A stretch of 52,019 bases of DNA from a virus (lineage: Duplodnaviria > Heunggongvirae > Uroviricota > Caudoviricetes): the IMG/VR virus record IMGVR_UViG_2724679140_000011, positions 1 to 52,019 of that record; one strand, 5' to 3'. The position numbers and the translations under genes were made by a program. Below the pieces are notes generated by a model, which made no database searches, was not told the origin of the DNA, and saw only the letters and a program-made list of their open reading frames with translations. This document shows, piece after piece, positions 16,601 through 50,600 of the stretch. The stretch's first letter is position 1. Each line of letters opens with the position of its first letter.

Positions 16601-16621
16601 ATTCATGAAGGAGCGGCCACA

Positions 16622-17821: not shown

Positions 17822-17850
17822 TTAACTTGTTATACATGGAGATATAGTTC

Positions 17851-20984: not shown

Positions 20985-20985
20985 T

Positions 20986-22120: not shown

Positions 22121-22156
22121 CAGCGTGCGCTGCCCCGCCCGCCTGCCCGCTTCGCT
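22121..22156. other. cos-like site (P2/P4-type cohesive end region)
   Basis: Reverse complement gggcaggcgggcggggcagcgcac resembles recalled P2/P4 cos GGCGAGGCGGGGAAAGCAC; lies between cargo and delta. Confidence 0.4.
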
Positions 22157-22304
22157 TAACAGACTGGTTTTCATGCACCCCGTAAATCGTCTCAGAAGCC
22201 ACCACACAAGGGCTTTCGCGTCAAAAATGGCGCATGAGACTCATGCGTTTTCATGCGCTATAGATATGCACTCATACGCCTTCAGGCCAGCCAGGGAAAA
22301 GGCG

Positions 22305-22330
22305 TAAAAAATCCCGGTACTGGACCGGGA
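22305..22330 (-). terminator. rho-independent terminator after the delta gene
   Basis: tcccggtactggaccggga hairpin followed by T6 on the minus strand. Confidence 0.5.
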
Positions 22331-22352
22331 CTACGTGGGCGTATTTTGCTAA

Positions 22353-22625
22353 TCAGACAGGAATTAGCTGACGGCTTGACAGCTTTGACGCGGAGCCATA
22401 GCGGTTGAGAGTTTGCTGTTGTTTTTCTGGCATTTGTTCTTTGTCTGATTCCTGTTCATTGCGCCAAGGCTTCATAATTATCGTATCCACGCTTTCCAGA
22501 GCGGTAAATGTGCAGGAACATTCCAGATTCTGGCACTGATACCATGAGCGTTTAACCGATGGAGCTTCATAGGCGCTGGTTCTGGCGTGAGCGACCGTCC
22601 CACATTCAGGACACTTCAGGGCCAT
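22353..22625 (-). CDS. Ogr/Delta-family zinc-finger late transcription activator
   Basis: MALKCPECG...HARTS...YQCQNLECSCTF matches the Ogr/Delta CxxC...CxxC pattern; perfect aaggagg SD before this ATG. Confidence 0.8.
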   Translation of the reverse strand: MALKCPECGTVAHARTSAYEAPSVKRSWYQCQNLECSCTFTALESVDTIIMKPWRNEQESDKEQMPEKQQQTLNRYGSASKLSSRQLIPV

Positions 22626-22626
22626 A

Positions 22627-23181
22627 TCAGTACCCTCCTTTTTCATTAAGTCGGTTAAGGCGGGCCAGGAAAACTTTATGTTGTGCCGGGGTGAAACTGG
22701 TTGAAGCATCAGCGTACATTGATGCATCCACCGTTAATCCGGTTTCGTCGATAATGCTCTTGTATGCTGCTGAAATTACCGGAGTACGCACTTCCGTTTG
22801 TCGGGCTACAGCGGTTCGTAATATTTTCATTGCCGCCTCAAGCCCGTATGGAGCGCAAAGAAAAGGAGCCAGTGCGTCAGTGAGTGCATCACCATGCTCG
22901 CTCATGAAGTTTTCCGTTGCGCTTGTAACACAACTCTCCAGCACAATCTGGTGAGCATAAAGACCATCCCGTGCAGCACAGTTAATCTGCCATTCGAGGA
23001 CAGCAAGACGCTCACGAAGCTCCTCAAGCTGGCTGGCATATGCTGCCGGTTTTTCTTCAGTATTCAGCAGAGCCGCCAGACGAAGCTGGTAGGTACTTTG
23101 CGTATTACGTAGTGTCAGCCAGCTTTTTATCGCCGAGCGGTAATCGTTGAGAGCTTCCTGAGTAATGGTTCCGGCATTCAT
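22627..23181 (-). CDS. psu: Psu-like polarity suppression / capsid decoration protein
   Basis: 184 aa; HG.AL..ALAP and C-terminal FTPAQ..F segments resemble P4 Psu as recalled; adjacent to delta. Confidence 0.6.
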   Translation of the reverse strand: MNAGTITQEALNDYRSAIKSWLTLRNTQSTYQLRLAALLNTEEKPAAYASQLEELRERLAVLEWQINCAARDGLYAHQIVLESCVTSATENFMSEHGDALTDALAPFLCAPYGLEAAMKILRTAVARQTEVRTPVISAAYKSIIDETGLTVDASMYADASTSFTPAQHKVFLARLNRLNEKGGY

Positions 23182-23963
23182 TTCTTCTCGCCCCCTTTAA
23201 CCATGTCACGCTGTTTAAGCATCCGTGAACGCGCTGCAGGGCTGGGGGATTGTCTGGCATCCTGGATGGCTTTATCGTCCGCATAAATGCTGATCCCCGG
23301 CAGGGTAATATCATCCGTTGAAGATACGTTACAGGACAGTACCGGAGTGGTGAGTTGCTCGCTGATAAATTGCTTCAGCACACTTTCGGGGTCGTTTACG
23401 GTATGAACTACACCGATAACAGCAGAAGCGCTTCGGCCCAGAGTCATTTTCAACAGTCCAAGGATCTGAATAAGTTTCTGGCCGTGTTCCTTCATAAACT
23501 CATTCCAGAGCCACACTGCATGAGTTTCAATCAGGCGATTATGTTCGCTGATGTAGTGGTTTGCAGCATCCGCAGTTTTCCAGGGCAGGAATTCATTTTC
23601 TGCCACCTGAGCTGCCAGCAAATCTTCGAACTCATCCAGTGTTTCGCGTCCGAGGGCGATTTCTGCCCGCAGTTTTTTCATGCGTGGTGTCATATTTCCC
23701 TGATTCTCACGAAACAGGTTTCGCCATTCATCATTAAGCGCCTGCGTTTCCGTTTTTGTATCTTCCTGACGTTTACGGATAGTTTCAATCATTGCAGCAG
23801 CTTCAGTTTGTTTTCGCCGTTCTTCCTGCCAGACAGCTTTTGCTGCCTTAACTTTTTCCACCGCTTCGCGAATTTTCGGCGGGAGGGAGGATGTAATGTT
23901 TGCATCAGAGATCTGGTTAACAGTAGTCATGAATGCTCCGGTAGTGTTTTGTTGTCGTGTCAA
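23178..23963 (-). CDS. Sid-like coiled-coil protein (size-determination scaffold), tentative
   Basis: 261 aa, charged coiled-coil-like central region; first gene of the sid/psu/delta-type operon. Confidence 0.4.
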   Translation of the reverse strand: MTRQQNTTGAFMTTVNQISDANITSSLPPKIREAVEKVKAAKAVWQEERRKQTEAAAMIETIRKRQEDTKTETQALNDEWRNLFRENQGNMTPRMKKLRAEIALGRETLDEFEDLLAAQVAENEFLPWKTADAANHYISEHNRLIETHAVWLWNEFMKEHGQKLIQILGLLKMTLGRSASAVIGVVHTVNDPESVLKQFISEQLTTPVLSCNVSSTDDITLPGISIYADDKAIQDARQSPSPAARSRMLKQRDMVKGGEKK

Positions 23964-24089
23964 TTGTGCCGATGCCCATACAAGCGCACTACCGAGGGGG
24001 ATTGTGTCAGTGACAGAACAATGACCTTGTTCTGGCTAGCCAGAGAAATGTGTCATGTCTGATCTTCAACTTTCCTTTAATAAATACTA

Positions 24090-24300
24090 TTCACTACTGT
24101 TCACTTTGATAAAAAAATTGATAATACAGCTAGTTAAGAGGTGAAGGGTTGACAAGGCAGTATTCAGTGACTGTTCATGAGTGTTCATCGGAAGGTAGCG
24201 TGATTTATGATTTTTTTTCATCAAAAGTGAAATTTTTATTCCGAATGATTATTTCATTATTGTTCCTCACAACTATTCACCACTCTTCAGTAGTATTCAA
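24090..24300. repeat. iteron cluster of TGTTCAC-like repeats (P4 ori/crr-type, tentative) within a late promoter region
   Basis: tgttcac, tattcac, tgttcat and gtgaag copies read repeatedly in both orientations. Confidence 0.45.
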
Positions 24301-24843
24301 CAGATGATGAAATAGACGATTTTTCTTTGCCGGGAAATAACATGATTCCCCCCTTTCCCTGGTGTTGCATTTCAATCTGATTTTTATAAAACTAGAACTG
24401 CTCGGTCTTTTATGAATTTATTTGGATATATTTTTAGGTTAAGAATGCGTGGTTATTGATTTTATGCGGTTCTAATTCTTCTGAGCTTGATGCAATTCAT
24501 GAGTATATCCTGAAGTTAGGTTTGCAATGTAAAGCCATATGTAGAAATTGTGCATCCCTGCTGAATGGGTTGCGGTTTCAGTACCATTAAGTTCTATGAC
24601 TTATGGGGTAGTAACCCCTGGATGAAAGTTAGTTCCTATTAATGTCCCTGTATTTATAGTTCGCAGACATAATATCTATCATGCCATTTTATGTGGTTTG
24701 ATATAGTTTTAAATTCCATTAAATCAATATGTGACGCTAAATAAATAATGGGTGCGTAAGCGAGAAATATATACATAATAAGGAACTACCTGAATCCGGG
24801 GGGATTTATCCGGACTGATGAAGGAATTAAAGAGGGTAGATAA

Positions 24844-25104
24844 ATGCATGATATTTCTGTTTCTGCGCCAGCTCCGGCTGCGCCATTATTTCCTGTGCTG
24901 AACCAGCATGAGCGATTTTTACGTCTTCCCGAGGTGATGCATTTATGCGGCTTGTCCCGCTCAACTATATACGACCTGATAAGCCGCGATGCTTTCCCGA
25001 AGCAGATCCCGCTTGGTGGTAAAAATGTTGCCTGGGCACAGTCAGAGGTAAGCGCATGGATGGCGGATCGTATAAGTGCCCGCGGACGGGGATGTGATGC
25101 ATAA
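24844..25104 (+). CDS. AlpA/Vis-family small DNA-binding regulator
   Basis: [48 protein letters not shown] is an AlpA-type HTH. Confidence 0.7.
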
Positions 25105-25655
25105 TGATGCCTGAACGCATTAATCCCCATTTTTCTGGCTTGCATCCTGCAGTCATTTCCAGGTATAGTTTTTCCGCTGCCGCAAAATCGGCAGCCGGAA
25201 TTGGCGTTCCGCGAAACTCAATGGCGACACCAGACGCGCCAAGCGTCTTTTTTTTCGTCGAAGCTCTGGCACACCCATTTTCCAGGCTGTGGTGTTTATG
25301 CGTACACCGTGGTTCTTTCGAGATAATGGCAGTCCGGGCGGGGCAGCCTTCGGGCTGGCCGGTATCCATTGAGGCCGGTTACGCCAACCCCGTTCGGGCT
25401 GCCACCAGTGAAATTGGCGTTTCCGGTGGTAGCAATAACCGCTACTCAATGGAGGCTGCCATCATGGCTACAACCCTCACCCCGTTTTACCCGCAATATG
25501 TCTTTGTGCTTGCCGCAATCCGCCGTGCTGACACTCAACCCCGCATCTGTATGCTTCGCACCGTGGCCTGCGATGAGCGCTTTGCACGCCTTTCGCTGGT
25601 CCGTGATTATGTGCTCTCCCTTTCTGCACGGCTGCCTGCCGGGGAGGTGATGTGA
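25104..25655 (+). CDS. hypothetical protein (P4 early region; start uncertain)
   Basis: ORF in GC-rich region; several overlapping frames, weak call. Confidence 0.3.
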
Positions 25656-25879
25656 TGAATCACGCCGCAATTTCTTATGACGATATTGTCCGCCTCAAGC
25701 ATCTTCGTAACGTGGGGGAATTTGTCACCGGAATGGCTGTTCTTCAGGACTGCTATGAAAAACCTGCAGGTGCTCAATGTGAGCAACTGGTTTCCCTGAT
25801 TTATCTGATGACAGAACAGCTTGATGGCGTGGTACAGCGTTGCCAGGATGACCTGATGAACAAGGAGGTGGTGCAATGA
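25652..25879 (+). CDS. hypothetical small protein
   Basis: Start overlaps upstream stop. Confidence 0.35.
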
Positions 25880-26199
25880 AATCACGCACTCTTCCCCTCT
25901 CACTTCGGCTGGCGTTATATCGCCGCGCGGTTGCCTGCGCCTGGCTGAGTATCTGCCATCAGCACAACCGCCACCTGCAGCTCACTCTGGATGAAATTGA
26001 AACCGCCATTGCCCGTGAGCTTGAAGGTTTTTATCTGCGACAGCACGGGCAAACAAAAGGCATGGAAATCGCCTGCGCCCTGCTTTCAGACCTGATGGAA
26101 TCCGGTCCTCTAATGTCCTGCCCCGCACTCTCCCAGCTCGGAATAGCCGTAATGGATGAGTTATGCGTCCGTCACATTATAAAGCCGGTTTTACACTGA
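25876..26199 (+). CDS. hypothetical small protein
   Basis: Start overlaps upstream stop; precedes alpha. Confidence 0.35.
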
Positions 26200-28547
26200 G
26201 GGAGAACTGCATCATGTCAGGAATGAAAGTCAGTCAGGCCGTGAAGGCTGCCCGCGGTCACTGGGCGCGGATTTTGCCAGCGCTGGGTATGAACATACTG
26301 AAAAATCGCCATCAGCCTTGTCCGGTCTGCGCCGGTAAAGATCGTTTTCGCTTCGACGATCTGGAAGGACGTGGAACATGGTTCTGCAACCAGTGCGGGG
26401 CTGGGGACGGTTTAGCGCTTGTCAGCAAGGTACTGAATGTGGATATCAGTGAAGCAGCAGACAGGATACATGGACTGACACATAGTCTGTCTTCAGCCTC
26501 TTCTGGAGTCTGGACGTCAACCGCAGATACAGATGGCGGGAAACAGGCGGCAGCAGCACTTGCCGCGCGACTACTGCAAGCCTCGCGTGAATCTGCCGGA
26601 AATACTTATCTTACACATAAAGGTTTCCCGGAGCATATTTGCCATGAGCTGACTTCAGGTCATAAAACCGGTGGGGTGATGTTCCACCCCGGTGATTTGA
26701 TCGTCCCGCTCTATAACGCTGACGGGGAACTGGTGAATATTCAGCTTATCAGTGGCAATGGTAGCAAGTGTTTTCTTAAAGGAGGTCAGGTTAAGGAGGC
26801 CTATCATCTGATAGAAGGGGGCGGGAGTTCTGTAAGAAGGATGTGGATTGCGGAAGGTTACGCCACGGCGCTTACCATTCGTCATCTGACAGGAGAAGCC
26901 GTCATGGTGGCATTTTCGTCGGTCAACTTTCTTTCTCTGGCCAGCGTTGCCCATAACAAGTATCCGGGATATCAGTTAATTATTGCAGCGGACCGCGATC
27001 TGAATGGTTCAGGCCAGAACAGGGCTGAAACTGCTGCAAAAGCGTGTCAGTGTGACATTGTGCTGCCACCGGTTTTTGGTGACTGGAATGATGCGCTTAC
27101 CCAATACGGAGAGGAATCCACCCGGAAGGCAATTCTTGAGGCTTTGAAGCCACATAACGCCAGTCCTTTCGACACAATGAGTGAAGCAGAATTCACAGCG
27201 ATGAGTGTCAGCGAAAAAGCTCAGAGGGTTCGGGAGCATTACAGGGATGCACTGGCGGTTGATCCGAACGGGCAGCTTTTATCCCGCTACGAGTCTGGAG
27301 CGTGGAAAGTGATTTCTCAGTCAGATTTTGCCCGAGATGTCGCAGCCCTTTTCCAGCGCCTCGGTGCACCGTTTTCCTCAGGAAAAATTGCTTCACTGGT
27401 GGAAACATTAAAGTTAATTGTTCCGCAGCAGCAAAATCCGGCACGTCATCTGATCGGTTTTCGTAATGGCGTCCTCGATACGCGAACAGGGCTGTTTAGT
27501 CCGCACTGTAAAGAGAACTGGCTGCGTACCCTGTGTGAAGTCGATTTCACGCCACCGGTAGAGGGGGAAACGCTTGAAACTCATGCCCCGGCATTCTGGC
27601 GCTGGCTGGACCGGGCTGCCGGACACAAGCCAGAAAAACGCGACATTATTCTTGCGGCGTTATTTATGGTGCTGGCGAATCGCTATGACTGGCAGCTCTT
27701 TCTGGAAGTGACTGGCCCTGGTGGAAGTGGCAAAAGTATTCTGGCTGAAATTGCGACCATGCTTGCTGGAGAGGATAACGCCACCTCTGCGACCATTGAA
27801 ACGCTGGAGTCCCCGCGAGAACGTGCGGCTCTGATAGGTTTTTCTCTTATTCGCCTGCCTGATCAGGAGAAGTGGAGCGGCGACGGCGCCGGGCTTAAGG
27901 CTATAACTGGTGGCGATGCGGTATCGGTGGACCCCAAATATCAGAATGCTTATTCAACACATATTCCGGCGGTTATCCTGGCCGTAAATAATAATCCTAT
28001 GCGCTTCACTGATCGCAGTGGTGGTGTGTCCCGCAGGAGAGTTATTCTGCATTTTCCTGAGCAGATAGCACCGGAAGAACGCGATCCGCAGCTGAAAGAT
28101 AAAATTGCACGAGAACTGGCTGTGATTGTTCGCCAGCTCATGCAGCGTTTCAGCGATCCGATGAGCGCCAGAACATTGCTTCAGTCGCAGCAGAATTCTG
28201 ATGAGGCTCTCACCATCAAGCGTGATGCTGATCCAGCATTTGATTTTTGTGGCTATCTTGAGGCATTACCTGACACCAACGGCATGTTTATGGGGAACGC
28301 CAATATTGTCCCACGCCAGCCACGTACCTACCTTTACCATGCCTACCTCGTATACATGGAGGCTAATGGATATAAAAACACCCTGAGTCTTACGATGTTT
28401 GGCAAAGGGTTGCCAGTCATGCTGAAGGAGTACGGGCTACATTATGAGAAACGGCGAACTAATCAGGGAATGCAGACTAACCTCACTTTAAAAGAGGAAA
28501 GTAATGCAGACTGGCTACCCAAGTGCGATGAGCCAACAATCAAATAA
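26163..28547 (+). CDS. P4 alpha-like primase-helicase (zinc ribbon + TOPRIM + D5-type helicase); probable start 26214
   Basis: [53 protein letters not shown], Walker A GPGGSGKS. Confidence 0.85.
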
Positions 28548-28565
28548 TTACAACTAACCCGGCTG

Positions 28566-28593
28566 ATGCCGGGTTTTATTTTTGCTGGCACAA
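28566..28593 (+). terminator. rho-independent terminator after alpha
   Basis: cccggctgatgccggg hairpin followed by ttttattttt. Confidence 0.5.
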
Positions 28594-28607
28594 GAATGTA
28601 GAGTTAT

Positions 28608-28690
28608 CTGTTCACTCTTCACCGTACAGTTAACTTCTATTTCCTTGATTTTGAATGGTAAAAATCCAAAGTGAACAGTGTGAACAATTT
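28608..28690. repeat. second TGTTCAC/GTGAACA iteron cluster (crr-like, tentative)
   Basis: tgttcactcttcacc and gtgaacagtgtgaaca. Confidence 0.4.
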
Positions 28691-28764
28691 ATTGAAAAAA
28701 GAGTTTTTTTGAATATAGAAGACCTATTTAGCGTGATTTTTTTAAAGTTCAATAAGTATTGCAC

Positions 28765-28790
28765 CCCGCTATTGGTATACGCTTAGGTAT
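28765..28790. promoter_or_regulatory. GGTATAC direct repeats near right end of the P4-like element (candidate arm-type sites)
   Basis: ttggtatacgcttaggtatac, same 7-mer as at 16545-16600. Confidence 0.3.
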
Positions 28791-28846
28791 ACAAACAAAA
28801 ACAACTTAAATAAATAACCAATTAAAACATAGATATAACATACAAA

Positions 28847-28870
28847 TTCAGACTCCGCCAGCCCCAATCA
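28847..28870 (+). repeat. degenerate ssrA 3'-end-like sequence, candidate distal att remnant
   Basis: ttcagactccgccagccccaatca versus ttcaactcccgccagctccacca. Confidence 0.45.
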
Positions 28871-33957: not shown

Positions 33958-34572
33958 CTATTTTTTTTCATATGAATTACGTGATTCCATACAGACATTT
34001 GGCGGCGTTTCTAAAATAACACTACGCGTACTACTTGGCTTAAGTAAACCAACATGAAAATCACTTTTTCTTATATTATCGAAAAGGTTCTGTTCATTTC
34101 TTTTAACGCATTCAAAAAACTGATCGTCATTATTTTTATTCGATAATTTTTTAGTTTCAGAAAACACATTTTCATTGTTTTCCAGCTTTAGTTTAATGAG
34201 AAGATTTTCCCAGACCTGCTTGCTTAAACATATTACGTCAGGCTCACCAGAACTAACTAACTCGTGATTATTATTAAAGTGTACGTTGAATACCTTTAAG
34301 TTATTTTCACCAACTTCATATTTAATACGTTTTAATTGTTCTCCAACTCCCATAATGACAAAGGCGTTGCCTTCATGATATATACATTCAGACATCATTT
34401 TTTGTAAAGTTTCAAGAGCACCGCGATACGTCTCTGATGCAGCTTCCTTACAAATTAATTTTAAAATACTATGAGCTAGTAGCTCCATGTGTTTAGAAGA
34501 TTTATTTTCATTATAACTTCCACTACCCAAAACTGCGCTAGCGTTAAATCCGTTGCTTTTACTAACTAACAT
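33958..34572 (-). CDS. hypothetical protein, 204 aa, AT-rich
   Basis: Upstream gene of the operon; 14-bp gap to the next gene. Confidence 0.5.
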   Translation of the reverse strand: MLVSKSNGFNASAVLGSGSYNENKSSKHMELLAHSILKLICKEAASETYRGALETLQKMMSECIYHEGNAFVIMGVGEQLKRIKYEVGENNLKVFNVHFNNNHELVSSGEPDVICLSKQVWENLLIKLKLENNENVFSETKKLSNKNNDDQFFECVKRNEQNLFDNIRKSDFHVGLLKPSSTRSVILETPPNVCMESRNSYEKK

Positions 34573-35321
34573 TGTCTATTCCTCAATTAATGTCTACATG
34601 GCTATTTTTAATGTTATTACTGTTTGTCACTATAAAAAAACGCTCATTTGAGAAAATTACTGATATTAACTGCTTCACTTGCTACGCATGGAACTTTTAA
34701 TTAAATTAGCACAGGAATGTTAAATTTAATAAACAAAAGGTTATTTCGCTGTATGATAAAAAAACCGTTATAATTTATTAGTGAAAATCGTTTTTCAAGT
34801 GTTAGAAATTTATATCTCAATAGCGTTGGTTAATGAGCATAGCCACGCTCCTGTAACGCTCACAAAACTCATCTGCCTGCGGCGGGTGTTCTGGTCAGTA
34901 GTAGATGTTTAAGGCGTGGCAGAGACATTTCATCCTTACTCTACGGCATTGTTCTACATACATTGGTTGTGGTACTCACTCATCATCAGTGAGCGAACAG
35001 AGAATAGTTCAGTGATTTGAGTAATTAACCTGATTAAATTAAGGGGTATAATAAATGATAATACTCTGGCTTTATCGTTAATTACTTAATTCCACATGTA
35101 AGCAATTTGCCCGCTTGGCATAGCAGGCATTTTTTCCAGGTACTTTTGAATGAGTACTGATGGATAAATACATTGCAGTGGCGTGCCACGTACCAAAACA
35201 CCAGCCCTCATTCGAAACCACCCACCGCACTTCTTCCTTGAAATGGCGTTAGTCATGAAATATAGACCGCCATCGAGTACCCCTTGTACCCTTAACTCTT
35301 CCTGATACGTAAATAATGATT

Positions 35322-35368
35322 TGGTGGCCCTTGCTGGACTTGAACCAGCGACCAAGCGATTATGAGTC
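35322..35368 (-). repeat. tRNA-Ile (CAU anticodon, ileX/ileY-like) 3' fragment, att-site copy
   Basis: Minus strand reads gactcataatcgcttggtcgctggttcaagtccagcaagggccacca; the 5' half is absent. Confidence 0.7.
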
Positions 35369-35564
35369 ATGAGGCAAGTTCGTTCTATATTGTTTTTGTT
35401 TGTTCGTGATTGTTTTATTAGTTGTTTATAATCAATGAATTATGTAATTTTCTCTGTCTCCGCTTGGTTCCGTTTTTTCTTCATTGTACGATCGTTACCT
35501 GACCCATTACCTGACCCAAAATCACGAGTTATTCTGATTGTTACTGGTTTAGAAAAGAGGTTCT

Positions 35565-36881
35565 ATGGCCGTCAATCTTACTGAAACAGCCATCCGAGCA
35601 TTGAAAGCAAAAAAGACATCGTTCTATGTCTGGAGCAACAGCTCTCAACGTGGCACTGGACGACTTGGTGTCAAAGTTCAGTCTTCTGGCAGCAAGATTT
35701 TCTATTTCCGCTATTATGTGGAAAAAGGGAAAAAAGAAAGATTCATTCAATTGGGTATATGGCCTGAGATGAAACTGGCCACAGCGAATGAACTGGCAAA
35801 AAAGTATGGTGCCTGGCTCATTGAAGGAAAGGATCCCCAGGCAGAACTGGAACGACAACAGTTTGCAGAACAGCAGCGGATACAACTCCATCAATCACAG
35901 GGCTCATTTGAAGCATTGATTCATGGTTATGTTAACAAAATGAAAATTGATAATAAGAGGACATGGCAGGATGTTCTGAAACGCCTTGAAAATGAATGCT
36001 ATACAGTGATCCCCCGTGAAACTAAAGCTAAAGATGTGACTTCCGGACAGATTAAACATATCCTGGCCGGGATCATTCAGCGTGGTGCTGTGGTTCACTC
36101 TAACCGGATCCGTTCTTACCTGATGGCTGCATTTAACTATGGACTGAAAGCAGATAACGATCCGATGAACACAAGTGCAGGGATTACTTTTGGGCTGGAG
36201 GCAAATCCGGTGTCAGTGATACCGAAACAGTCATCTGCTGAAAAAGTCGGTGATACTTGGCTGACACTTGAAGAGTTGCGTTTTCTAATGGAACATTTTG
36301 CTGAAGCAACCAACGTTGGATTATTGATGCAACATTTGATCCGATTCTGTATCTATACCGGAGGGCAACGTCCCTTCGAAATGATCGCCAGTCAGTGGTG
36401 TGATGTTGATTTTCAACAAAAAACGCTGCTGGTGACTGCTGATGTCTCTAAAAATAAACGAGAGCATTTGATACCGTTGACTGAATCAGCATTACAGGAA
36501 TTATCCTGTGTGCAGGAGTTAACAAAAGAAAAATCCAGCCCTTACATTTTTCCACTTTCGACTAATGGTAAGCGTCCGGTTCGTACGGACAGTCTGGCTC
36601 GCGCTATCATGTATTTCCGGGCTTTTAATCCTGACTTTAAAATTTTTACAGCACGTGACTTACGTCGGACCTGTAAAACGTTAATGGGAGAAGCTGGGAT
36701 CAGTAAGGAGATCCGCGATCGTATTCAAAATCATGCGTTGAACGATGTCAGTTCAAAACATTATGATCGATACGATTATTTGCCAGAAAAACGCAGAGCA
36801 CTTGAGATCTGGGAGGACCGGGTTAATAACTATCAACAGCAAACAGGCAATAATGTTGTCAATCTGTTTGGCAGAAGGTGA
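35565..36881 (+). CDS. P4-type tyrosine integrase
   Basis: 438 aa; N-terminus ...TSFYVWSNSSQ...KIFYFRYY typical of the P4-type arm-binding domain; adjacent to the tRNA fragment. Confidence 0.9.
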   Translation: MAVNLTETAIRALKAKKTSFYVWSNSSQRGTGRLGVKVQSSGSKIFYFRYYVEKGKKERFIQLGIWPEMKLATANELAKKYGAWLIEGKDPQAELERQQFAEQQRIQLHQSQGSFEALIHGYVNKMKIDNKRTWQDVLKRLENECYTVIPRETKAKDVTSGQIKHILAGIIQRGAVVHSNRIRSYLMAAFNYGLKADNDPMNTSAGITFGLEANPVSVIPKQSSAEKVGDTWLTLEELRFLMEHFAEATNVGLLMQHLIRFCIYTGGQRPFEMIASQWCDVDFQQKTLLVTADVSKNKREHLIPLTESALQELSCVQELTKEKSSPYIFPLSTNGKRPVRTDSLARAIMYFRAFNPDFKIFTARDLRRTCKTLMGEAGISKEIRDRIQNHALNDVSSKHYDRYDYLPEKRRALEIWEDRVNNYQQQTGNNVVNLFGRR

Positions 36882-36980: not shown

Positions 36981-37607
36981 GTGCCGGTATTACTCAGAGG
37001 GGATTCAAAAATGGCTGTAATTCCAATGTCTTACTCCCCTGCTACTGTAGCTCGTCGTTTTTCGATACTGGATGGAGTAACTATTCAGGGCGTGCTTTAC
37101 CAGATCATCTGGGATCCAAAGACTCCGTTTGCTGCGGTAATCGAAGCTGCACCTTCTGTTATTGATGGTGATGTTCGCCATAAGGTTGTTGCCACTCTGG
37201 AGCTTCAGCGTCGTCCCCGGCTTGAAGGCGTGTTTGTCCAGAAATTCTGGGAAGAACAGGATGTTGCTCAGATTGAAGGGATTGTTGTCGATGGCGCTGT
37301 ACGTGATGTTGGTCTTGCAACGTTTGTTTATGAAACGATAGTCACAAAAGCGGGCGTTGTACTATTAAGTGATAACGAGCAATATGAAGGAGGTAAAGCT
37401 CTCTGGCAGCATATTGCGCGTCGTTCAACGAATCTGAAGGTGTTTATTTTAGATACTGATTCCGCACGGTATTACCCGTTTGATGGCGAACGGATCAGTT
37501 ATGACGGGAAAAGCATCCCGGAATCAGAAATCTGGAGTGAACATCCTGAGCGAAACAGACACGCTGTCGTTCTTGTGGCTGAATCTGTTAATGGCAAAGC
37601 CGCATAA
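36981..37607 (+). CDS. hypothetical protein, about 200 aa
   Basis: ORF downstream of the integrase, convergent with the 534-aa gene. Confidence 0.5.
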   Translation: MPVLLRGDSKMAVIPMSYSPATVARRFSILDGVTIQGVLYQIIWDPKTPFAAVIEAAPSVIDGDVRHKVVATLELQRRPRLEGVFVQKFWEEQDVAQIEGIVVDGAVRDVGLATFVYETIVTKAGVVLLSDNEQYEGGKALWQHIARRSTNLKVFILDTDSARYYPFDGERISYDGKSIPESEIWSEHPERNRHAVVLVAESVNGKAA

Positions 37608-37689: not shown

Positions 37690-39294
37690 TTACTGTTCGA
37701 CCAGACATTTTCCCCATAAAGGTCGTATCGAGTATCTATCTTCGCTATATGGATTTATTTTATTTTTTTCCCTCTGTGCTATCAGCAACGTGTCGATCTC
37801 ATCCTTAATAATGTGTTGAACTGCTTGACGGTAACGGTTAAGCGAAGTGTCACTGATATCTTGTGGAAGTTGTAGACTGCTATCTGCCTTGACGAGTTCA
37901 TTCACACCATCTTTAATTTTGCGTCCCTGACCATCAGGTATACCTTCATTCAGATCATAGCCTTTCAGTCCTGCAAGACGAATATTCACGTCAATCTTTT
38001 CTGTACGTTTCTTTTTGTTACTTACCAACAGAATTTTATTGGCGTTATACCATTTTTCAAATGTTTCCAGTTGTTTCATGATGTTTGTGAAGTTATTCAG
38101 TTCGCTCCTGAATTCAATAGATTTTCTAATTTCACGCTCTTTTGCATCAATGTTTATTCCTGGATAATTTATTTCCCTTTTTAACGGTTCTATGTATGCC
38201 TGTTGCAGGCAACCAGCAAGATTCATTGCTGCATCCTGCAGGGTATTGGTATAAATCAGTTTCAGAAGTTCATCGCGCTGTATAGTGATTTGACAATAGT
38301 CTTTTTCCCATGCGGTGGTGTTTTCAATCGTGTCACTTTCATCGGAAATAATTGTTGTGAATTTCCAGGTGTAACGAATAAAATCATTTCCTTTAAAATA
38401 TTGCACTAATTTATTTAACCATTCATATATTTCCAGAGCATAAAGTTTAACGTATCCATCATATATTATCTTTGTTGCATTTTTGTTGGCTAGCGAAAAC
38501 ATTTTGTCCACGAATTCTGTACGCCCGATTGTTAGCAATTGTTTTCTAAGTTTACTCACATCGTTAGTATCTGGTTTCTCACAATTCCAGGGACTTTTGT
38601 ATTCATTTTCAAAAGGAGAAAGCCATTCAGGAATCTCTGTTTTTGAGTGATAGCAGTTGTTAATAGCCAAACCAAGGGTTCTGGCAAGTATCGCTGATTC
38701 ATCAATTTGATGGTATCGGTTCAGTTGTTCCAGTAATTCTTTAGTACATGAGTGCGCAACAGAAAGATCCTGATGGCAATATCCTTGTCGAACCAGAGCG
38801 GGAAGTGGTGAGCAATGAGCTTTACAATCTGTCAGAATATTGAACAAATCGTTTCTGACGAATTCTTCCATCTCAGGTGTTTTCCAGCCACCACTATTTT
38901 GGCCGACAAATTTTGCTGTTGGTTCCCTGTTCATATCTCCCCAGGTTTTCAGGCTGACGAGTCTGTTATCAAAACCATTGTATAAATGGCACATAACCTG
39001 AAAAGCAGCATACAGCTCTTTAGATAGTGGATTATCGGTCTCACCTATGGAGTAGTCCTCTCTATTTTGCTCTAAAATATTTTGTAGTTTTGTGTTAGCG
39101 CGTAATGCCGAGAGAATCCGATGTTGTTCATCAAACCAGGGACGATATTCTGGATCCAGATACAATCTGCGTGCTTTGAAAATGAGTAGAAGCAACTGTT
39201 CGGAAACAGCTTCATGTATGTGGGGAAACGGCATGGAGGTGCCAGATAAAACACGATAGTACGGGTGGTTTGTTTTTACCTTTTTAGTTACCAT
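37690..39294 (-). CDS. hypothetical protein, 534 aa, AT-rich orphan gene
   Basis: Long ORF in AT-rich DNA with no recognisable motif; integrase-proximal position. Confidence 0.65.
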   Translation of the reverse strand: MVTKKVKTNHPYYRVLSGTSMPFPHIHEAVSEQLLLLIFKARRLYLDPEYRPWFDEQHRILSALRANTKLQNILEQNREDYSIGETDNPLSKELYAAFQVMCHLYNGFDNRLVSLKTWGDMNREPTAKFVGQNSGGWKTPEMEEFVRNDLFNILTDCKAHCSPLPALVRQGYCHQDLSVAHSCTKELLEQLNRYHQIDESAILARTLGLAINNCYHSKTEIPEWLSPFENEYKSPWNCEKPDTNDVSKLRKQLLTIGRTEFVDKMFSLANKNATKIIYDGYVKLYALEIYEWLNKLVQYFKGNDFIRYTWKFTTIISDESDTIENTTAWEKDYCQITIQRDELLKLIYTNTLQDAAMNLAGCLQQAYIEPLKREINYPGINIDAKEREIRKSIEFRSELNNFTNIMKQLETFEKWYNANKILLVSNKKKRTEKIDVNIRLAGLKGYDLNEGIPDGQGRKIKDGVNELVKADSSLQLPQDISDTSLNRYRQAVQHIIKDEIDTLLIAQREKNKINPYSEDRYSIRPLWGKCLVEQ

Positions 39295-40363: not shown

Positions 40364-41110
40364 ATGATGAAACGTGTCTCTTTTTCTCTTGCAGAAACAT
40401 ATGAAGCTGATGTAATTAAAAAGTATCAGTATTTAAAAAAATGCTCATTTTCAGCAGCGATTAAAGAGTGTTTAAAGCTAGGGGCTCCTGTTTTAAACAG
40501 GATAAATGAAAATATTGCTGCTATAACTGATATAGAGGATAAGCTACGTCAGTTTTTTAATGAGGAACCATTTGTGCAACGGACAAAGCCTGAAATAACA
40601 AAAGGAGAGTTTTTTCATAGCATTTATAAATCGCATATCAAATATGAATATGATGTTCTCGATAGAAAGATATTTCCTCATGAAAGCACCAGAAATGCTA
40701 TGGGAGTTGCAGAGAAAAAGGGAATTAAAGAGAATGCGACCTTAATGCTGGAATATTATAAAGTTGAGAAGGCAATTTGTATTTACACGAACAGAAAAGT
40801 TTCCCATACCCTGAATTGTGCAGGAGGGTTTTATAAAACCATTCTGATTAAAACCAGTGTTTTTGGGGATTGTTTTTTTGACTTTTGCAATTCAGTTTGC
40901 CTGCCGATAGATGAGTTGATTGAGTATGGTACGAAAGAAACAGTGAGGCGACATCAGATTCGTAGTACAGGATTTTGTACTTTTCATATTCCGATTTTTT
41001 ATATCAACAATAAGGCTGTAATAGTGCCTGTTCTGAGAACAGAGGAAGTTTCACAAAGTTCCAGAACAGGTGGAGATGTTATTATTATTAACCCATTTGA
41101 AGATGAATGA
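40364..41110 (+). CDS. hypothetical protein, 248 aa, N-terminal RHH-like segment
   Basis: aaaggag SD; N-terminal KRVSFSLAETYEADVIKKYQ resembles a ribbon-helix-helix start. Confidence 0.55.
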   Translation: MMKRVSFSLAETYEADVIKKYQYLKKCSFSAAIKECLKLGAPVLNRINENIAAITDIEDKLRQFFNEEPFVQRTKPEITKGEFFHSIYKSHIKYEYDVLDRKIFPHESTRNAMGVAEKKGIKENATLMLEYYKVEKAICIYTNRKVSHTLNCAGGFYKTILIKTSVFGDCFFDFCNSVCLPIDELIEYGTKETVRRHQIRSTGFCTFHIPIFYINNKAVIVPVLRTEEVSQSSRTGGDVIIINPFEDE

Positions 41111-42280: not shown

Positions 42281-42895
42281 ATGATTACGATTGAAACTCT
42301 TTACGGTGAATGCCATGAGGCTCACGGGTTAAAAATAAGAAACCAGGTGGATAACCTTTTCCAGAAACATCCCAGAATAACGGCAATACGGGTGGATCTC
42401 CATTACCCTCCCGTGATTGACAACGGGGATACCATTACCTGTTTTCCTAACCTGAGTCCCGGAGAGATATCTCGTTTCCGTAACTCGCTGAATGCGAAAA
42501 TTAATGCAGATCAACACCGTAAAAAACAACAAGGCAAACGCACCTACGCAACGTCGGTTTGTATTATCTGGGCGAAAGAATATACGCAGTCCTTTAAATG
42601 TCATTATCACGTCTGCCTTTTTTTTAACAAAGACGCTTATTACCACCTGGGAGACTATGAGCGCTCTGACACCCTGAGAGGGTTAATTACCGGAGCCTGG
42701 TACAGTGCCTTAGGGTTAGAACTGGAAGATCACCAGGGACTAGTTCATTTCCCTGCTAATGGACGTTACATCCTGGATATTAACGATCCTGATTTCCCTG
42801 AGCAGTATCAGCGCTTATTGGCACGTCTGGATTATCTGACGAAGCTCGACACTAAAGCATCAGGCCAGCGTAACTTTGGCTACAGCGGTTTTTGA
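42281..42895 (+). CDS. YagK/YfjJ-family (inovirus Gp2-like) protein, tentative
   Basis: CHYHVCLFFNKD segment; family typical of CP4-type islands as recalled. Confidence 0.5.
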   Translation: MITIETLYGECHEAHGLKIRNQVDNLFQKHPRITAIRVDLHYPPVIDNGDTITCFPNLSPGEISRFRNSLNAKINADQHRKKQQGKRTYATSVCIIWAKEYTQSFKCHYHVCLFFNKDAYYHLGDYERSDTLRGLITGAWYSALGLELEDHQGLVHFPANGRYILDINDPDFPEQYQRLLARLDYLTKLDTKASGQRNFGYSGF

Positions 42896-42922: not shown

Positions 42923-43489
42923 ATGTATACAGAATCAAACGTTAAGCTTTCCTGTAATGCCCTCTGGCAAAAGTGTGTCCTTGCAACTCTGTACCGGGCT
43001 GCAGCTACACATCCTAAAATTAAATTATTACAATTTAAATTAATACCTTACCCTGGTATGAATAAGGCAATTCCATCTCTGATGGCTGATTTTACTGGTG
43101 AACTGCATAGACTAATTTCTGAATATTTGCAGTGTAAGCGACGTAAAGATAAATCTGTTGAGCCCACCCCTTTATATTATCTCTGGAGTAGGGAGGCCAT
43201 GGCTAACGATACCACTCCTTATCTTATGGTACTGCTACTTAATAACGATGTCTGGTGTAAGAGTCGTGAGGTGGTGGTTCTCAGAAATCTGATTGAGCAG
43301 GCGTGGGGAAAAGTATTGGATGAAGATAACTCTGTTACACATCTGGTTGTGTATCCTGAAGTGCTGTCGTTAGTATTTGATGCAGCTAACACATACAACA
43401 CTGAGCTTGGTGTACTGGAACAGACGGCCCAGGCTTACATTGAATCGCATGGTGCCATTGAACGTCATCTTGGGTGTAGTGACTTTTAA
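42923..43489 (+). CDS. paralogue of 42281..42895 (YagK/YfjJ-like)
   Basis: Similar length and shared YLMVLLLNND-type core with the upstream gene. Confidence 0.5.
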   Translation: MYTESNVKLSCNALWQKCVLATLYRAAATHPKIKLLQFKLIPYPGMNKAIPSLMADFTGELHRLISEYLQCKRRKDKSVEPTPLYYLWSREAMANDTTPYLMVLLLNNDVWCKSREVVVLRNLIEQAWGKVLDEDNSVTHLVVYPEVLSLVFDAANTYNTELGVLEQTAQAYIESHGAIERHLGCSDF

Positions 43490-43819: not shown

Positions 43820-44536
43820 TTGGGGAGACATTTAATGTTTGGCCATCTGCTACGATACTTTAGTTTCTGTAAAAAAGATTTATTAGTATTTCATCCTGAA
43901 TCTGATTATTCAGATAATTTACGTAAAGCCTTCTCTTTTACAAAAAGGCTGGGATTTAATGAAGAATGGAATGGAGTCACAAAAAACAAAGAATACGATT
44001 ATCAGGATGTATTCAGTCATGTCTGTCTGCAGTCTGGCGTGACAGACTTTTCCGCTTCAGCAGGACAATGCTTAAAGTGGAGTCATTATTTTCAGCCATA
44101 TTTTGAGAATATCCTTGAATGTCGGGTATGGGTTACCGTCGGACAACTCTGGAAACAGGAAAGATTTATTTACAATCCGTCAGTTGCGGATTTTCAGCGC
44201 TGGTCTGAAAAAGGGATTCAGCCTGAGGATTTCAGACATCACTCAGGGTTTAACTTTCATGCGTGGTTGACGACGGAAAATGGTGTGATTGTGGATGTTT
44301 CCTTTATGAGTACGTTATCGCGGCGATTACCTGAACACCTGAGTGAAGTCAGTGGAAGTGTGATTATTGGCCCGCCAGAGACGGTTCTTCCTGAGCATAA
44401 ATATGTTCCCATGATTGTCGGTCAGAGGATTGTTGAGAAAATAGAAAAACGCTCTTTCATTGATTTTCTGGCGCACGACGATATTGATTTATATACAGTG
44501 CCTGCAATCCTGGTTCCGGTATGGAAAGAATGTTAA
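43820..44536 (+). CDS. hypothetical protein, 238 aa
   Basis: ORF upstream of the CDI locus. Confidence 0.5.
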   Translation: MGRHLMFGHLLRYFSFCKKDLLVFHPESDYSDNLRKAFSFTKRLGFNEEWNGVTKNKEYDYQDVFSHVCLQSGVTDFSASAGQCLKWSHYFQPYFENILECRVWVTVGQLWKQERFIYNPSVADFQRWSEKGIQPEDFRHHSGFNFHAWLTTENGVIVDVSFMSTLSRRLPEHLSEVSGSVIIGPPETVLPEHKYVPMIVGQRIVEKIEKRSFIDFLAHDDIDLYTVPAILVPVWKEC

Positions 44537-45338: not shown

Positions 45339-47078
45339 TTGACTGGAAAATTATGTTGCAGGAACGAGAGGGCTGAGGAACAAAGCGTATTCCGGCGCTG
45401 TCCGTCCTTGCTGTCACTGACACTGATGTCTGTTTTACTATCGCCTTTATCTCTTCAGGCAGCGGATATCCGGCGTAGTGGAGAGGATACATTTATCATT
45501 CAGCAGCAGCGTCAGGAAGCCCTTGAGCAACAACTGACGCCTTCAGCCCCTGATGTTCGCCTTTCTGCACCTGGCTCTTTTGCCCATAAGATTAATTTTC
45601 CTGTTGAAACGCCCTGTTTTCAGATTAAACAGACGGAACTGAAGGGGGCTGATGCGTTACCACACTGGCTGCCTTTACAAAAAATCGCCAACGGGGCGGT
45701 CGGGCATTGCCTGGGGGCGAAAGGAATTAATCTGCTGATGAGTACATTGCAGAACCGTCTGGTCGATCATGGTTATGTCACCACCCGTGTTCTGGCACCT
45801 TCGCAGGATTTAAAAAGCGGTATCCTCCGGCTGGTTATTATTCCCGGTGTTGTGCGACATGTGCGTCTGACACCGGACAGTGATGACTATATTCAGTTGT
45901 ATTCCTCATTCCCGGCACACGAAGGTTCTCTGCTGGATTTACGGGACATTGAGCAGGGGCTGGAGAATATGCAACGACTGCCGGGTGTGCAGGCTGATAT
46001 GGAAATTGTGCCCGGTGAGCAGCCAGGGGAAAGTGATATTCTTATTACCCGTAAACAGGATAAATACTGGCGACTGGGGTTTTCGCTTGATGATTCAGGT
46101 ACCCGCAGCACAGGGCGTTATCTCGGTGGTATAACATTTTCTCTGGATAATCCTTTTTCCCTGAGTGACCTGCTGTATGTTTCTGCCACCCATAATTTTC
46201 CACATTACGGGGGTAAGGGCAGTAAAAACTACACGGCCCATTACTCTGTGCCTTTCGGTTACTGGCAGTTTTCCGTCACCGCCAGTGATTACGATTACCA
46301 TCAGACGGTAGCTGGTGCGGTTGAGGATTACCAGTACAGTGGCGAGAGTCAGAATCTGGGCATGCAGCTGAGCCGGGTACTGCACCGTAACGGGACGCAG
46401 AAAACGGTGCTGACTTACGATGTTCAGGCCCGCAGGTCGCGTAACTACATTAATGATACGGAAATCCAGGTGCAGCGCCGGCAGACAGCGGCCTGGCGAC
46501 TTGGGCTGCAGCACCGTCATTATATTTCTCAGGCCACACTGGATGCTGGTGTCAGCTGGCAACGGGGAACCCGCTGGTTTGGTGCACAGCCGGCACCGGA
46601 GGAAATCTTCGGTGAGGCAACGGCGCTCAGTAAGATCCTGCAGATGAATGCATCCTTTAATCTGCCCTTTACACTGGCAGAGCAGCCCTTCAGTTATTCC
46701 TTCCGGTATCAGCGCCAGCTGAGCAATACCCCGCTGACCCCACAGGAACAGTTTGCCATCGGTAACCGCTGGACGGTTCGTGGTTTTGACGGGGAGCGAA
46801 CGCTGAATGCCAGTAACGGCTGGTATATCCGCAACGACCTGGCCTGGCGTACGCCACTGCCGGAGCAGGAGTTATATCTGGGAATGGATTACGGCGAGGT
46901 GGGGGGAGCCGGCAGTGAATATCTGGTGGGACGTCATCTGGCCGGTGGTGTTGTGGGGCTGAGGGGGCAACTGTTCAGTACGGATTATGACGTTTTCATC
47001 GGTCGTCCGTTTTCAAAGCCGGCGGGTTTTATGACGAGTGATGTGACAGCCGGTTTTAATCTGTTCCGGGATTTCTGA
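45339..47078 (+). CDS. cdiB: two-partner secretion outer-membrane transporter (TpsB; ShlB/FhaC/CdiB family); start uncertain between 45339 and 45426
   Basis: RR-containing signal peptide, POTRA-like region, C-terminus ending GFNLFRDF typical of a beta-barrel. Confidence 0.85.
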
Positions 47079-47087
47079 GAAAGTTTC

Positions 47088-47615
47088 ATGCGTAACGGGA
47101 AATATGACGTTCTGAGTCCCCTGTATTCCGGTGAGCCGGTCAATGAGGCGGAAGTCCTGGGGGCGGCCGTCTGGTTGTGGATGCACTCCCCCCTGCATCG
47201 TGATGCGCCACTGCATACCCTGCCGGACCTGCTGCTGCCGGTGATTAAGCACCGACAGTATGTGGTGGCAACAGAGCAGGGGCGACCGGTTTTCTTCATG
47301 AGCCAGGCCTGGCTCAGCCCGGAGGCAGAGGCGCGTTATCTTACGCAGCCGGCAATTCTCATGCCTCAGTCGGACTGGAACAGCGGCGACCGGATGTGGG
47401 TCTGTGACTGGGTTGCCCCTTTTGGACACACTCCGGATATGAGTCGTCTTGTCCGGCAGGATATTTTTCCCCGTCTGTGCTGGCGTTCGCTGTACCACCG
47501 TGGGCAGCAGACCGGGTTACGGGTGATGAATTTCCGGGGTGCACAGGTCAGTCGTGAAGAGGCGCGCCAGTGGCGTGTGCAGCACCCGCTTGCTGTGGAT
47601 GTGCCGGAGAGATAA
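47088..47615 (+). CDS. cdiC: HlyC-family toxin-activating lysine acyltransferase (CdiC-like)
   Basis: VWLWMHSPLHRD...SGDRMWVCDWVAPFGH closely parallels HlyC VSWLW..SPLHRNW...SGDRKWFIDWIAPFG as recalled. Confidence 0.85.
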   Translation: MRNGKYDVLSPLYSGEPVNEAEVLGAAVWLWMHSPLHRDAPLHTLPDLLLPVIKHRQYVVATEQGRPVFFMSQAWLSPEAEARYLTQPAILMPQSDWNSGDRMWVCDWVAPFGHTPDMSRLVRQDIFPRLCWRSLYHRGQQTGLRVMNFRGAQVSREEARQWRVQHPLAVDVPER

Positions 47616-47630
47616 GTCAGGTTTATCAGA

Positions 47631-50600
47631 ATGAACAGAAATTGTTACCGCATTATTTTTAACAAAGCCCGGGGAATGCTGATGGTGGTGGCAGATATTG
47701 CCCGTTCCGGTCGCGCCGGTACATCACTGTCCTCCCGCACAGGATATCCACACAGGCAACGTATCTGCCGTGTCACGCCGCTTGCATTCTCTTTGTGGCT
47801 GGCTTCGGGGATGGTGCATTCTGTCAATGCTGCAGGCATTGCCGCAGACCATGGCGCACCGGGGCATCAGCAGCCCACGATTACGCAGACGGCCAGCGGC
47901 ATTCCGCAGGTGAATATTCAGACGCCTTCTGCCGGTGGGGTTTCACATAACACATACAGCCAGTTCGACGTCGGTAACAAGGGTGTCATTCTGAATAATG
48001 CCCATAACAATGTGCAGACTCAGCTGGGTGGCATGGTGGCCGGGAACCCGTGGCTGGCGAAGGGAGAGGCCAGAATCATTCTTAATGAAGTGAACAGTCG
48101 CAATCCCAGCCAGTTGAACGGTTTTGTTGAGGTTGCCGGTAAAAAGGCGCAGGTGGTGATTGCGAACCCGGCCGGCATCAGTTGCGACGGGTGCGGTTTT
48201 ATTAATGCGAACCGGGCCACGCTGACCACGGGGCAGCCTCAGATGAAAAACGGCAGTCTGACCGGATTCAGTGTTGAACGTGGTGAGATTCAGATTACGG
48301 GCAAAGGGATGGATGCCTCGCGCACGGATTATACCGATATCATTGCCCGGTCAGTGAAGATTAATGCGGGTATCTGGGCGCAGGACCTGAAAGTGACCAC
48401 CGGACGTAACAATGTGGATATCGCGCACGGGCAGACTGAGAAAAAAGCCGCTGATGCCTCTTCGCAGCCACAGGTGGCGCTGGATGTGTCCAGCCTTGGT
48501 GGAATGTATGCCGGAAAAATTCGCCTTGTCGGTACGGAAACGGGGGTGGGGGTTCGTAACGCCGGTCATATTGGTGCGCAGGCAGGGGCGGTTACCCTGA
48601 CGGCTGACGGACGTATTGAAAACAGTGGCAGTATCAGTGCGAAAACGGATGTGCATCTGGCGACAACCCGGGAGCTGCATAACAGTGGTTCTGTTTATGC
48701 GGGGCAGGATACGCAGATACAGAGTAATGGTGTATTCACCCATACAGGCTCTGTGGCATCACGTCGCAACACCCGGATTCAGACAGCGCGTCTGACCGGC
48801 GGTGAGCGGAGTCTGCTGGCCGCCGGGGTGAAAGATGACGGACGTCTGGCGGCAGCGGGCAACCTGACTGTCAGTACCACCGGCGAACTGGCGGCACACG
48901 GACAGGTTCTGTCCGGTGGGGACATGCAACTGAAGGGGCAGGGGCTGGATTTAAGCAACAGCCGGATACAGGGACAACATACTGAGCTGGATGCAACCAG
49001 TGGAAATCTGTCCACACAGAATGTGCAACTGAGCGCCGGCACGCTTTCCGCCCGGACTGCCGGGCACTTCAGCAATAATGGTGGCACGATAAATGCCGAC
49101 ACACTGCAGATATCGGCACAGAGCCTGTCAAACCACAGGGGTAAACTGATTCAGACGGGAACAGGGGATTTTTCACTGAACCTGCCGGGAGGTGTGGATA
49201 ACCGGGAAGGGCTGCTTGCGGCAAATGGCGCGGTGCGCCTGGATGCACTGAGCCTTGATAATCGCAGGGGGAAAGTGCAGGCGGTGCAGTCAGGCAGTCT
49301 GCAGGTGAAGACAACCGGTGCCGTGGACAACCAGCAGGGAAGTCTCACCGCCAGCCGTGATGTCCGGCTTAACGCTCAGGCGCTGAATAACGACAACGGA
49401 CTGATTTCAGCTGCTGCCGGAACGGGCAGGATAAAAACACAGCAGGCTGTCAGCAATACGGAGGGACGAATGGAGTCCGCCGGCAGGCTGGGTATTTCGG
49501 CAGGGAGTCTGAATAACCACCAGGGTACGGTGGTGTCTGACGGGCTGTCCGTGACGCTGGATGGTGCGCTGGATAATACGTCCGGCAGACTGCTTTCACA
49601 GAAAACGCTGTCTGTGTCAGGCAGCGAACTGGTCTCTGATGATGGTCTGATTCAGTCCGGCAGTGACATGACGCTGGATGTACAGGACGGGGTACTCAGT
49701 AACCGGAACACGAAAACACGGGGTGGTATCAGCAGCGCCGGTACCCTGACAGTACGGGCTGGTATGCTGAATAACCAGCAGGGATTTATAGTGGGTCAGA
49801 AGGATATGACCCTGAACGCCGGAACGCTCGATAACCGTCAGGGCGTGCTGGGGAGTCAGGCGTCATTGCAGATATCGTCAGGTACGCTGATGAACCAGAA
49901 AGGCGCACTGAAGGCCGGGACGGATATGTTGCTGAGTGGTGGTGATGTCAGTAATCAGGAAGGGACGCTTGCCGCCGGCAGAGACCTGAATGCGCACCTG
50001 AATGTGCTGGAAAATCAGCAGGGGGCGGTGGTCAGCAACGGTAACAGCAGGCTTGATGTCACACGGTTTGATAATCAGGGCGGCAGACTGGTGGCACAGC
50101 AGTCACTGACCCTTTCCTCGACGGATATCATCAACGATGCCAGTGGCCTGATACAGAGTGGTGCATCGCTGAATCTCCGTGCTGACACACTGAGTAACCG
50201 TAACAGTGGTGACCGGGGCGGGGTTATCAGTCAGGGCCCGATGACGCTGAATGCCGGCACACTGGACAGCACTGCCGGTGTGCTTTTGTCGGGAGATGCT
50301 CTGTCCTTGACTGCAGGCGTGGTTAACAATACATCCGGTCAGGTGGTGGCAAACGGTCTGCTCGGCTGGAACAGCCAGGCGCTGAACAATCAGTCCGGTC
50401 TTATTCAGGGGAGGGGTATCAGCATTAATACCGCAGGCCAGACGCTGGATAACAGACGCGGTACGCTGAACAGCCTGCAGGAACTGACTGTCAGTACCGG
50501 AGCAATGGATAACCGGGGCGGGACCGTGGGGGCGAAAACGACAGCTGACCTGAGCACCACCTCGCTGGATAACCGTGAGGGGGGCCGGCTGGTCAGTGAA

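Follow-up and report, generated by a model that had tools for sequence, protein, structure and literature searches.

A 47-nt piece of a tRNA gene within the 52,019-nt stretch of DNA analysed here (the window) is, judged from its sequence, almost certainly the original 3' end of the Escherichia coli gene ileY, displaced by an integrative island of ~53 kb that recombined into the gene by means of its own tyrosine integrase. The window is E. coli DNA, and its sequence from position 28847 onward matches the chromosome of the O22:H8 strain RM10809-3 at 99.9% identity. An equation of the whole window with that chromosome was ruled out; left of 28847 the window, in which no intact ssrA is present, contains two extra elements. 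The island's left 16.7 kb lies inside the window, and since the intact ileY, like the island's right end, lies beyond position 52019, both were read from RM10809-3, the nearest complete genome. The coordinates of all features are collected in Table 1.

The minus-strand sequence of the fragment, GACTCATAATCGCTTGGTCGCTGGTTCAAGTCCAGCAAGGGCCACCA, is identical at 47 of 47 positions to nucleotides 30–76 of ileY from E. coli K-12, a gene annotated as tRNA-Ile(CAU), and constitutes the sole significant match to ileY within the window (blastn-short, E = 2e-22). It opens with the 2 nt that complete the 5' strand of the anticodon stem and runs on across the anticodon loop, the variable loop and the T-arm to the 3' strand of the acceptor stem and the CCA end. 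In an alignment with K-12 the identity ends sharply at 35368/35369, and from 35369 onward, on the 5' side of the fragment, alignment with K-12 ileY revealed no similarity to the 5' half of the tRNA. ARAGORN detected no tRNA anywhere in the 52,019 nt, and Rfam found none in the window either at the gathering threshold or at E<=10. A preliminary description, made from the letters alone, had called this a minus-strand 3' piece of ~47 nt from a CAU tRNA-Ile joined to an unrelated 5' half, and both parts of that reading were borne out: we found neither a complete, foldable tRNA here nor a match to a different tRNA. The shortness of the element is the one point that favours chance similarity to a tRNA; set against the 47/47 identity, the E value of 2e-22 and an identical flank of 120 nt, we regard that possibility as negligible. 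Permissive Rfam searches of 35100–35600 additionally returned a Plastid-ycf2 match (19.8 bits versus a gathering score of 65.7), which mirrors the tRNA-like sequence, and a miRNA match, both of which we rejected as chance.

The fragment carries a base in its acceptor strand that reveals its source. This base is of the ileY type (AAGGGCC) in the window, whereas the equivalent fragment at the ileX locus reads AGGGGCC; because the base is locus-specific in both places, the window fragment reads as chromosomal rather than island-borne. Native chromosomal sequence also continues on the ypjC side of the fragment. One might argue instead that the 47-nt piece is an island-borne copy derived from attP and that the island extends to the left, over ypjC–ypjA, rather than to the right, as ypjA–ypjC, with its autotransporter, pseudogenes and piece of a recombinase, resembles DNA acquired horizontally long ago, and the interval between ssrA and ileY has been labelled an 'ileY-associated phage' (PMC4313913). 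We consider this highly improbable, given the locus-specific base of the fragment, the island-type T-arm of the regenerated tRNA at the opposite end (see below), and the contiguity of the left flank with ileY in island-free K-12. Moreover, of 5426 complete E. coli genomes, 5420 gave a match to a 2.5-kb query (34300–36800) spanning the ypjC-side flank.

RefSeq annotates a 94-aa 'hypothetical protein', WP_001347906.1, on the minus strand at window positions 35086–35370. Its ATG is made by the junction of island and chromosome, its frame reads through the tRNA fragment, and it has no match in Pfam; it is probably a spurious gene call.

With the fragment assigned to the chromosome, the rest of the gene is found at the other end of the island. 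In RM10809-3 an intact tRNA-Ile gene lies on the minus strand (record positions 3156264–3156339) ~52.8 kb to the right of the fragment; the two share one orientation, and the 3' fragment lies downstream of the intact copy. A three-way alignment revealed that K-12 sequence resumes inside this tRNA, at the right end of the island, and runs on through the 5' half and the upstream flank. The intact ileY of RM10809-3 is a hybrid: its 5' half comes from the chromosome, and the island supplies the T-arm and the 3' strand of the acceptor stem. It differs from native ileY at 5 positions, all in the last 27 nt: in the T-stem GCTGG/CCAGC is replaced by GTTGG/CCAAC, two changes that compensate each other; the T-loop reads TTCAAAC instead of TTCAAGT; and the acceptor strand reads AGGGGCC instead of AAGGGCC, the last of these swaps giving rise to a U6-G67 wobble. 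A terminator-like hairpin is situated 8 nt past the CCA end of the island-borne tRNA part. In K-12 MG1655 the corresponding site is empty, with ypjC, ileY and ygaQ directly adjacent, which amounts to the left flank, the tRNA and the right flank of the occupied site; ygaQ, glaH and gabDTP lie beside the intact tRNA-Ile in RM10809-3 as they do in K-12. This relationship between empty and occupied layouts is the signature of site-specific insertion. The preliminary description had looked to island-free strains for comparison and to an intact tRNA with a distal attachment site elsewhere, and K-12 and RM10809-3 (52.8 kb to the right) agree with its predictions. To that description we would add two refinements, namely that the fragment is the tRNA-distal, displaced copy, with the integrase at the end of the island far from the intact tRNA, and that this intact tRNA falls outside the window.

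The two tRNA copies at the island ends share 42 of 47 positions, yet they have just one block of perfect identity, 20 bp in length at tRNA positions 30–49, which covers the anticodon loop and the 3' strand of the anticodon stem. As no other perfect identity exists between the island ends, strand exchange would have to fall inside 35349–35368, and since the block spans the anticodon loop, the tRNA attachment site of the element belongs to the anticodon-centred class. Integration then most likely proceeded as follows. The attachment site of the island would bring its own copy of the last 47 nt of the tRNA, followed by the terminator hairpin, and the island integrase (Int) would recombine this site with the anticodon-loop region of ileY, probably after assembling, in the manner of phage P4, on 12-bp arm sites arranged in tandem to either side of the core. 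Strands would be exchanged within the 20-bp identical block, the precise cleavage positions being inferred. The 5' half of chromosomal ileY would thereby join the island's 3' copy, making the tRNA gene whole again as a hybrid at the island's far (right) end, and the native 3' part would stay behind as a dead fragment at the near (left) end, beside int.

The enzyme that would carry out this reaction is encoded on the opposite strand from the fragment and starts 196 nt to its right. It matches the PHROG_1 integrases (1.5e-45), and in Pfam it contains an N-terminal Arm-DNA-bind_3 (DUF4102) domain (4.4e-15) and a C-terminal Phage_integrase domain (1.8e-10), with a weak central match to Phage_int_M. 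Residues R269, R367, H390 and Y400 occupy the catalytic positions in an alignment. Tyrosine recombinases usually carry H-x-x-R at box II. In Int the box II His is replaced by Arg (RDLRRT, residues 364–369, window ~36654–36671), as it is in 76 of the 78 relatives that we retrieved, in which the motif reads R-D-[LIV]-R-R-T; since the Arg is conserved family-wide, it is unlikely to be a defect. The preliminary description had spoken of a P4-type integrase about 200 bp away on the other strand. The domain architecture, the distance and the strand agree with this, while the label 'P4-type' holds only in a broad sense because Int is just 21% identical to P4 Int (BLASTP, 412 columns, E 1e-15), making it a distant relative, and it is 26% identical to the integrase of a P4-like satellite in the same window.

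A promoter scan identified no consensus sigma-70 promoter between the fragment and int. This interval does contain two tandem 12-mers, and a second pair with the identical motif lies at the opposite island end (L002 10183–10206), 57–80 bp past the 3' end of the tRNA. The pairs at the two island ends are the only occurrences in ~150 kb, and the motif is kept at the same position in genera in which Int is >=74% identical. As the annotated attP of P4 follows the same plan, we read the 12-mers as candidate arm-type binding sites for Int. Downstream of int the island also specifies a small protein of the AlpA family that is a candidate excisionase or directionality factor.

Could the fragment be a remnant of ileY left by an unrelated deletion or insertion sequence (IS) event, with the integrase nearby by coincidence? 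Loss of the tRNA upstream of ypjC through IS elements is documented in E. coli W and B (PMC3032704), and IS elements interrupt the junction in some genomes (H10, H23, H24). Nevertheless, there is very little to recommend this explanation, as no IS end adjoins the fragment in the window, ileY is regenerated at the other end of the island in RM10809-3, and the break always falls at tRNA position 29/30, at ileY, at ileX and in ~40 other species, always 186–198 bp from an integrase of the same family. The ileX case is exemplified by strain RM10042, which contains the same island in ileX beside nfeF; its Int protein does not differ from that of the window, and from precisely window position 35322 onward the DNA matches at 99.9%. 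The RM10042 fragment has the ileX-specific acceptor base, one base off the window fragment, and is followed by the same sequence that begins at 35369 in the window. The island family thus uses both copies of the tRNA-Ile2 gene, ileX and ileY. Among 5426 complete E. coli genomes, the int region is carried by 459; the ypjC-fragment-int junction diagnostic of ileY is present in 96 and the nfeF-fragment-int junction of ileX in 360, and 2914 have an uninterrupted ileY locus of the K-12 type.

We surveyed other genera with one genome per species from GTDB. At 44 loci from ~40 species of Enterobacterales, including Escherichia albertii and members of Yersinia, Serratia, Erwinia, Pantoea, Photorhabdus, Sodalis and Providencia, the fragment starts at tRNA position 30 and lies on the opposite strand 186–198 bp upstream of an int whose product is 57–99% identical to Int of the window. 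The full 47 nt are present at 42 loci and only a shorter, 29-nt match at two (L027, L048). The T-arm of the fragment varies with the host across these loci. In none of the 44 does an intact tRNA lie next to the fragment and int; at a Sodalis locus (L028) fragment, int and an intact tRNA(cat) occur within 3.9 kb. Because it recurs at 44 loci from ~40 species, the arrangement of an antisense fragment and int is characteristic of the family and no accident.

Displacement of ileY by a site-specific island follows a well-known mechanism in the ordinary way, and the family to which the island belongs has already been described. That a tDNA is regenerated and a fragment displaced is the textbook principle of the islands catalogued by Islander, in which anticodon-centred attP sites account for 2083 of 3919 islands (Hudson, Lau and Williams 2015, PMC4383910); the class is also treated for Klebsiella in bioRxiv 2020.11.02.365908. 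Like those islands, the island described here has a regenerated tDNA at its other end (in RM10809-3), a matching 3' fragment displaced downstream in the same orientation, an integrase inside and an empty site in another strain. The fragment length fits the anticodon-centred class, from which we see no essential difference and of which the window island is an instance.

The closest described relative is TRI-2, the ileX-associated tellurite resistance island of STEC O145:H28 strain RM13514, also reported from O145:H25 and O121:H19 (Carter et al. 2022; PMC9144400, PMC9729726). Tellurite resistance islands downstream of ileX in STEC O145 and O121 are reported to measure 52–71 kb and to have 12-bp direct repeats (PMC9144400, PMC9729726). 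The integrase of RM13514 TRI-2 is identical to Int at 431 of 438 residues, and the attachment module is the same: a fragment-int arrangement (there beside nfeF), the island-type T-arm on the regenerated tRNA, the terminator at the right end and the pair of 12-mers. The RM10809-3 copy, at ~52.8 kb, is of comparable size and has the same classes of cargo (a ter operon, Ag43 and a CbtA/CbeA module). Unlike TRI-2, which resides in ileX, the window island is inserted in the paralogous ileY, between ypjC and ygaQ, and has a cdiBCA locus near the integrase, and its int-proximal 4 kb are only ~85% identical to RM13514 at the DNA level. In place of the 12-bp direct repeats reported for TRI-2, our alignment gives an imperfect repeat of 47 nt (42/47), within which a block of 20 bp is perfect. 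Our literature search found no paper on this island at ileY, none linking ileY with tellurite islands and none describing the ileY locus of RM10809-3.

Comparison with phage P4 suggests that the element works like P4 while the organisation of its attachment site differs. Int is an arm-domain integrase in that it combines Arm-DNA-bind_3 and Phage_integrase domains with full-length homology to P4 Int, and it is almost the same length (438 aa versus 439 aa). In both elements tandem arm repeats of 12 bp flank the core to left and right, with one of the pairs a short way upstream of int; both encode a small protein of the AlpA/Vis type (in the P4 record the 88-aa ORF88 is annotated 'excisionase and transcriptional regulator'); and both target the 3' part of a tRNA gene, leuX for P4, and regenerate it. 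The element departs from the P4 site in orientation, core length and position of the identity block. The core of P4 comprises the last 20 bp of leuX, from the T-loop side to CCA, whereas here there are 47 nt with a crossover region around the anticodon loop. The P4 core reads in the same direction as int, such that P4 int adjoins the intact tRNA; in the window element the tRNA part is antisense to int, and therefore int lies beside the displaced fragment with the intact tRNA at the far end. The P4-like satellite in the window has the P4 polarity at ssrA, as does its counterpart in strain 789.

Table 1. Positions of features in the window, with strand and the matches or observations on which each rests.
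Feature	Position	Strand	Match or observation
P4-like satellite	16438-28866		psu/sid/delta homologues
P4-like satellite int	16622-17821		
Hachiman HamB-like helicase, P4-like satellite	~18402-20957	-	
Hachiman HamA, P4-like satellite	~20986-21927	-	
isrK	25176-25253		Rfam match
C4-type RNA	25322-25409		Rfam match
P4-like satellite alpha primase	~26214-28547		
ypjC-side native flank, downstream of ileY; chromosomal, outside the island	35202..35321	-	120/120 identical to K-12
Displaced ileY 3' fragment (positions 30-76), tRNA-distal island junction, attR-type	35322..35368	-	47/47 vs K-12
20-bp block CGACCAAGCGATTATGAGTC, contains anticodon loop	35349..35368	.	sole perfect identity between island ends
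Island left end: AT-rich att arm and integrase upstream region	35369..35564	+	K-12 similarity stops at 35368/35369
Two tandem 12-mers TTACCTGACCCA, candidate arm-type integrase binding sites	35495-35518	+	46 bp before int start codon
Tyrosine integrase, 438 aa, identical to WP_000290292.1	35565..36881	+	Pfam, PHROG_1
208-aa ORF	36981-37607	+	
534-aa ORF	37690-39294	-	
AlpA-family small DNA-binding protein, 81 aa	40056..40301	+	Pfam Phage_AlpA 7.9e-14
248-aa ORF	40364-41110	+	
Two adjacent YagK/YfjJ (inovirus Gp2-like) genes	42281-42895, 42923-43489	+	
238-aa ORF	43820-44536	+	
CdiB-like gene	45339-47078	+	Pfam ShlB/POTRA
HlyC/CdiC-like lysine acyltransferase, between cdiB and cdiA	47088-47615	+	Pfam HlyC
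cdiA, reading frame open to window end	47631-52019	+	1463 codons without stop
Island-type 3' part of hybrid ileY, beyond the end of the window: …GGTCGTTGGTTCAAACCCAACAGGGGCCACCA			

The preliminary description had placed a CDI locus in the island to the right of the integrase, and cdiB, a cdiC-like gene and cdiA are indeed found there (45339–52019). The gene order of RM10809-3 begins with ssrA, ypjA, ypjC, the fragment, the integrase (WP_000290292.1), unknown genes, the AlpA-like gene and the YagK/YfjJ genes; continues with cdiB-cdiC-cdiA-cdiI, IS66 copies, the ter operon, Ag43 and an antirestriction/CbtA-CbeA module; and ends with the intact tRNA-Ile on the minus strand, followed by ygaQ, glaH, lhgO and gabDTP. 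The CDI immunity gene after cdiA is annotated by RefSeq in RM10809-3, and the ter genes are present in that copy of the island to the right of the window's end. In RM10809-3 cdiA, which is 99.9% identical, is annotated as three broken pieces, a discrepancy that reflects either a real difference or frameshift errors in the RM10809-3 assembly. Four ORFs of the island near int (208, 534, 248 and 238 aa) have no match in Pfam or PADLOC. E. coli islands, CP4-57 and CP4-6 among them, commonly contain the YagK/YfjJ module.

This island was counted as the third in the window by the preliminary description, and rightly so, as the window also holds the end of a lambdoid prophage and a P4-like satellite, in tandem at fragments of ssrA. 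The first ssrA 3' fragment (16402–16437, plus strand) consists of 36 nt with 94% identity and ends the lambdoid prophage (int 13700–14905). The second, at ~28845–28866 on the plus strand, is degenerate, having small deletions, and leads into the native downstream flank of ssrA. The two fragments mark a tandem array at ssrA composed of the lambdoid prophage end and then the P4-like satellite. In APEC strain 789 intact ssrA is followed by an element that matches the satellite at 100% identity. Rfam also reports an STnc100 sRNA match (96 bits) at 16–224 on the minus strand, inside the late region of the lambdoid prophage.

The T-arm variant borne by the island, GTTGG TTCAAAC CCAAC (L002 10264–10310), is the native type in the fragments beside related integrases in Atlantibacter and Chimaeribacter and nearly so in Brenneria (loci L013, L036 and L011), and may be a trace of an earlier host lineage of the island. 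With each integration, the gene for the AUA-decoding tRNA-Ile2 would have its T-arm, acceptor 3' strand and terminator replaced by a foreign version. We think it unlikely, though conceivable, that this swap in the polarity-flipped family has a functional consequence such as an altered level, processing or TilS/IleRS handling of the rare tRNA.

The importance of these observations is limited, and nothing in them will surprise a specialist. What they add is small: the precise anatomy of the attachment site and a polarity that is inverted relative to P4. They also correct a likely mis-annotation, the 'hypothetical protein' whose start codon is made by the junction. The details of the site, comprising a 47-nt imperfect repeat, a 20-bp block, 12-mers and a tRNA-distal int, refine the published description based on 12-bp direct repeats, and would help automated island callers that expect the integrase beside the intact tRNA. 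For E. coli itself, they fix to the base the left boundary of an island that carries CDI and probably tellurite resistance.
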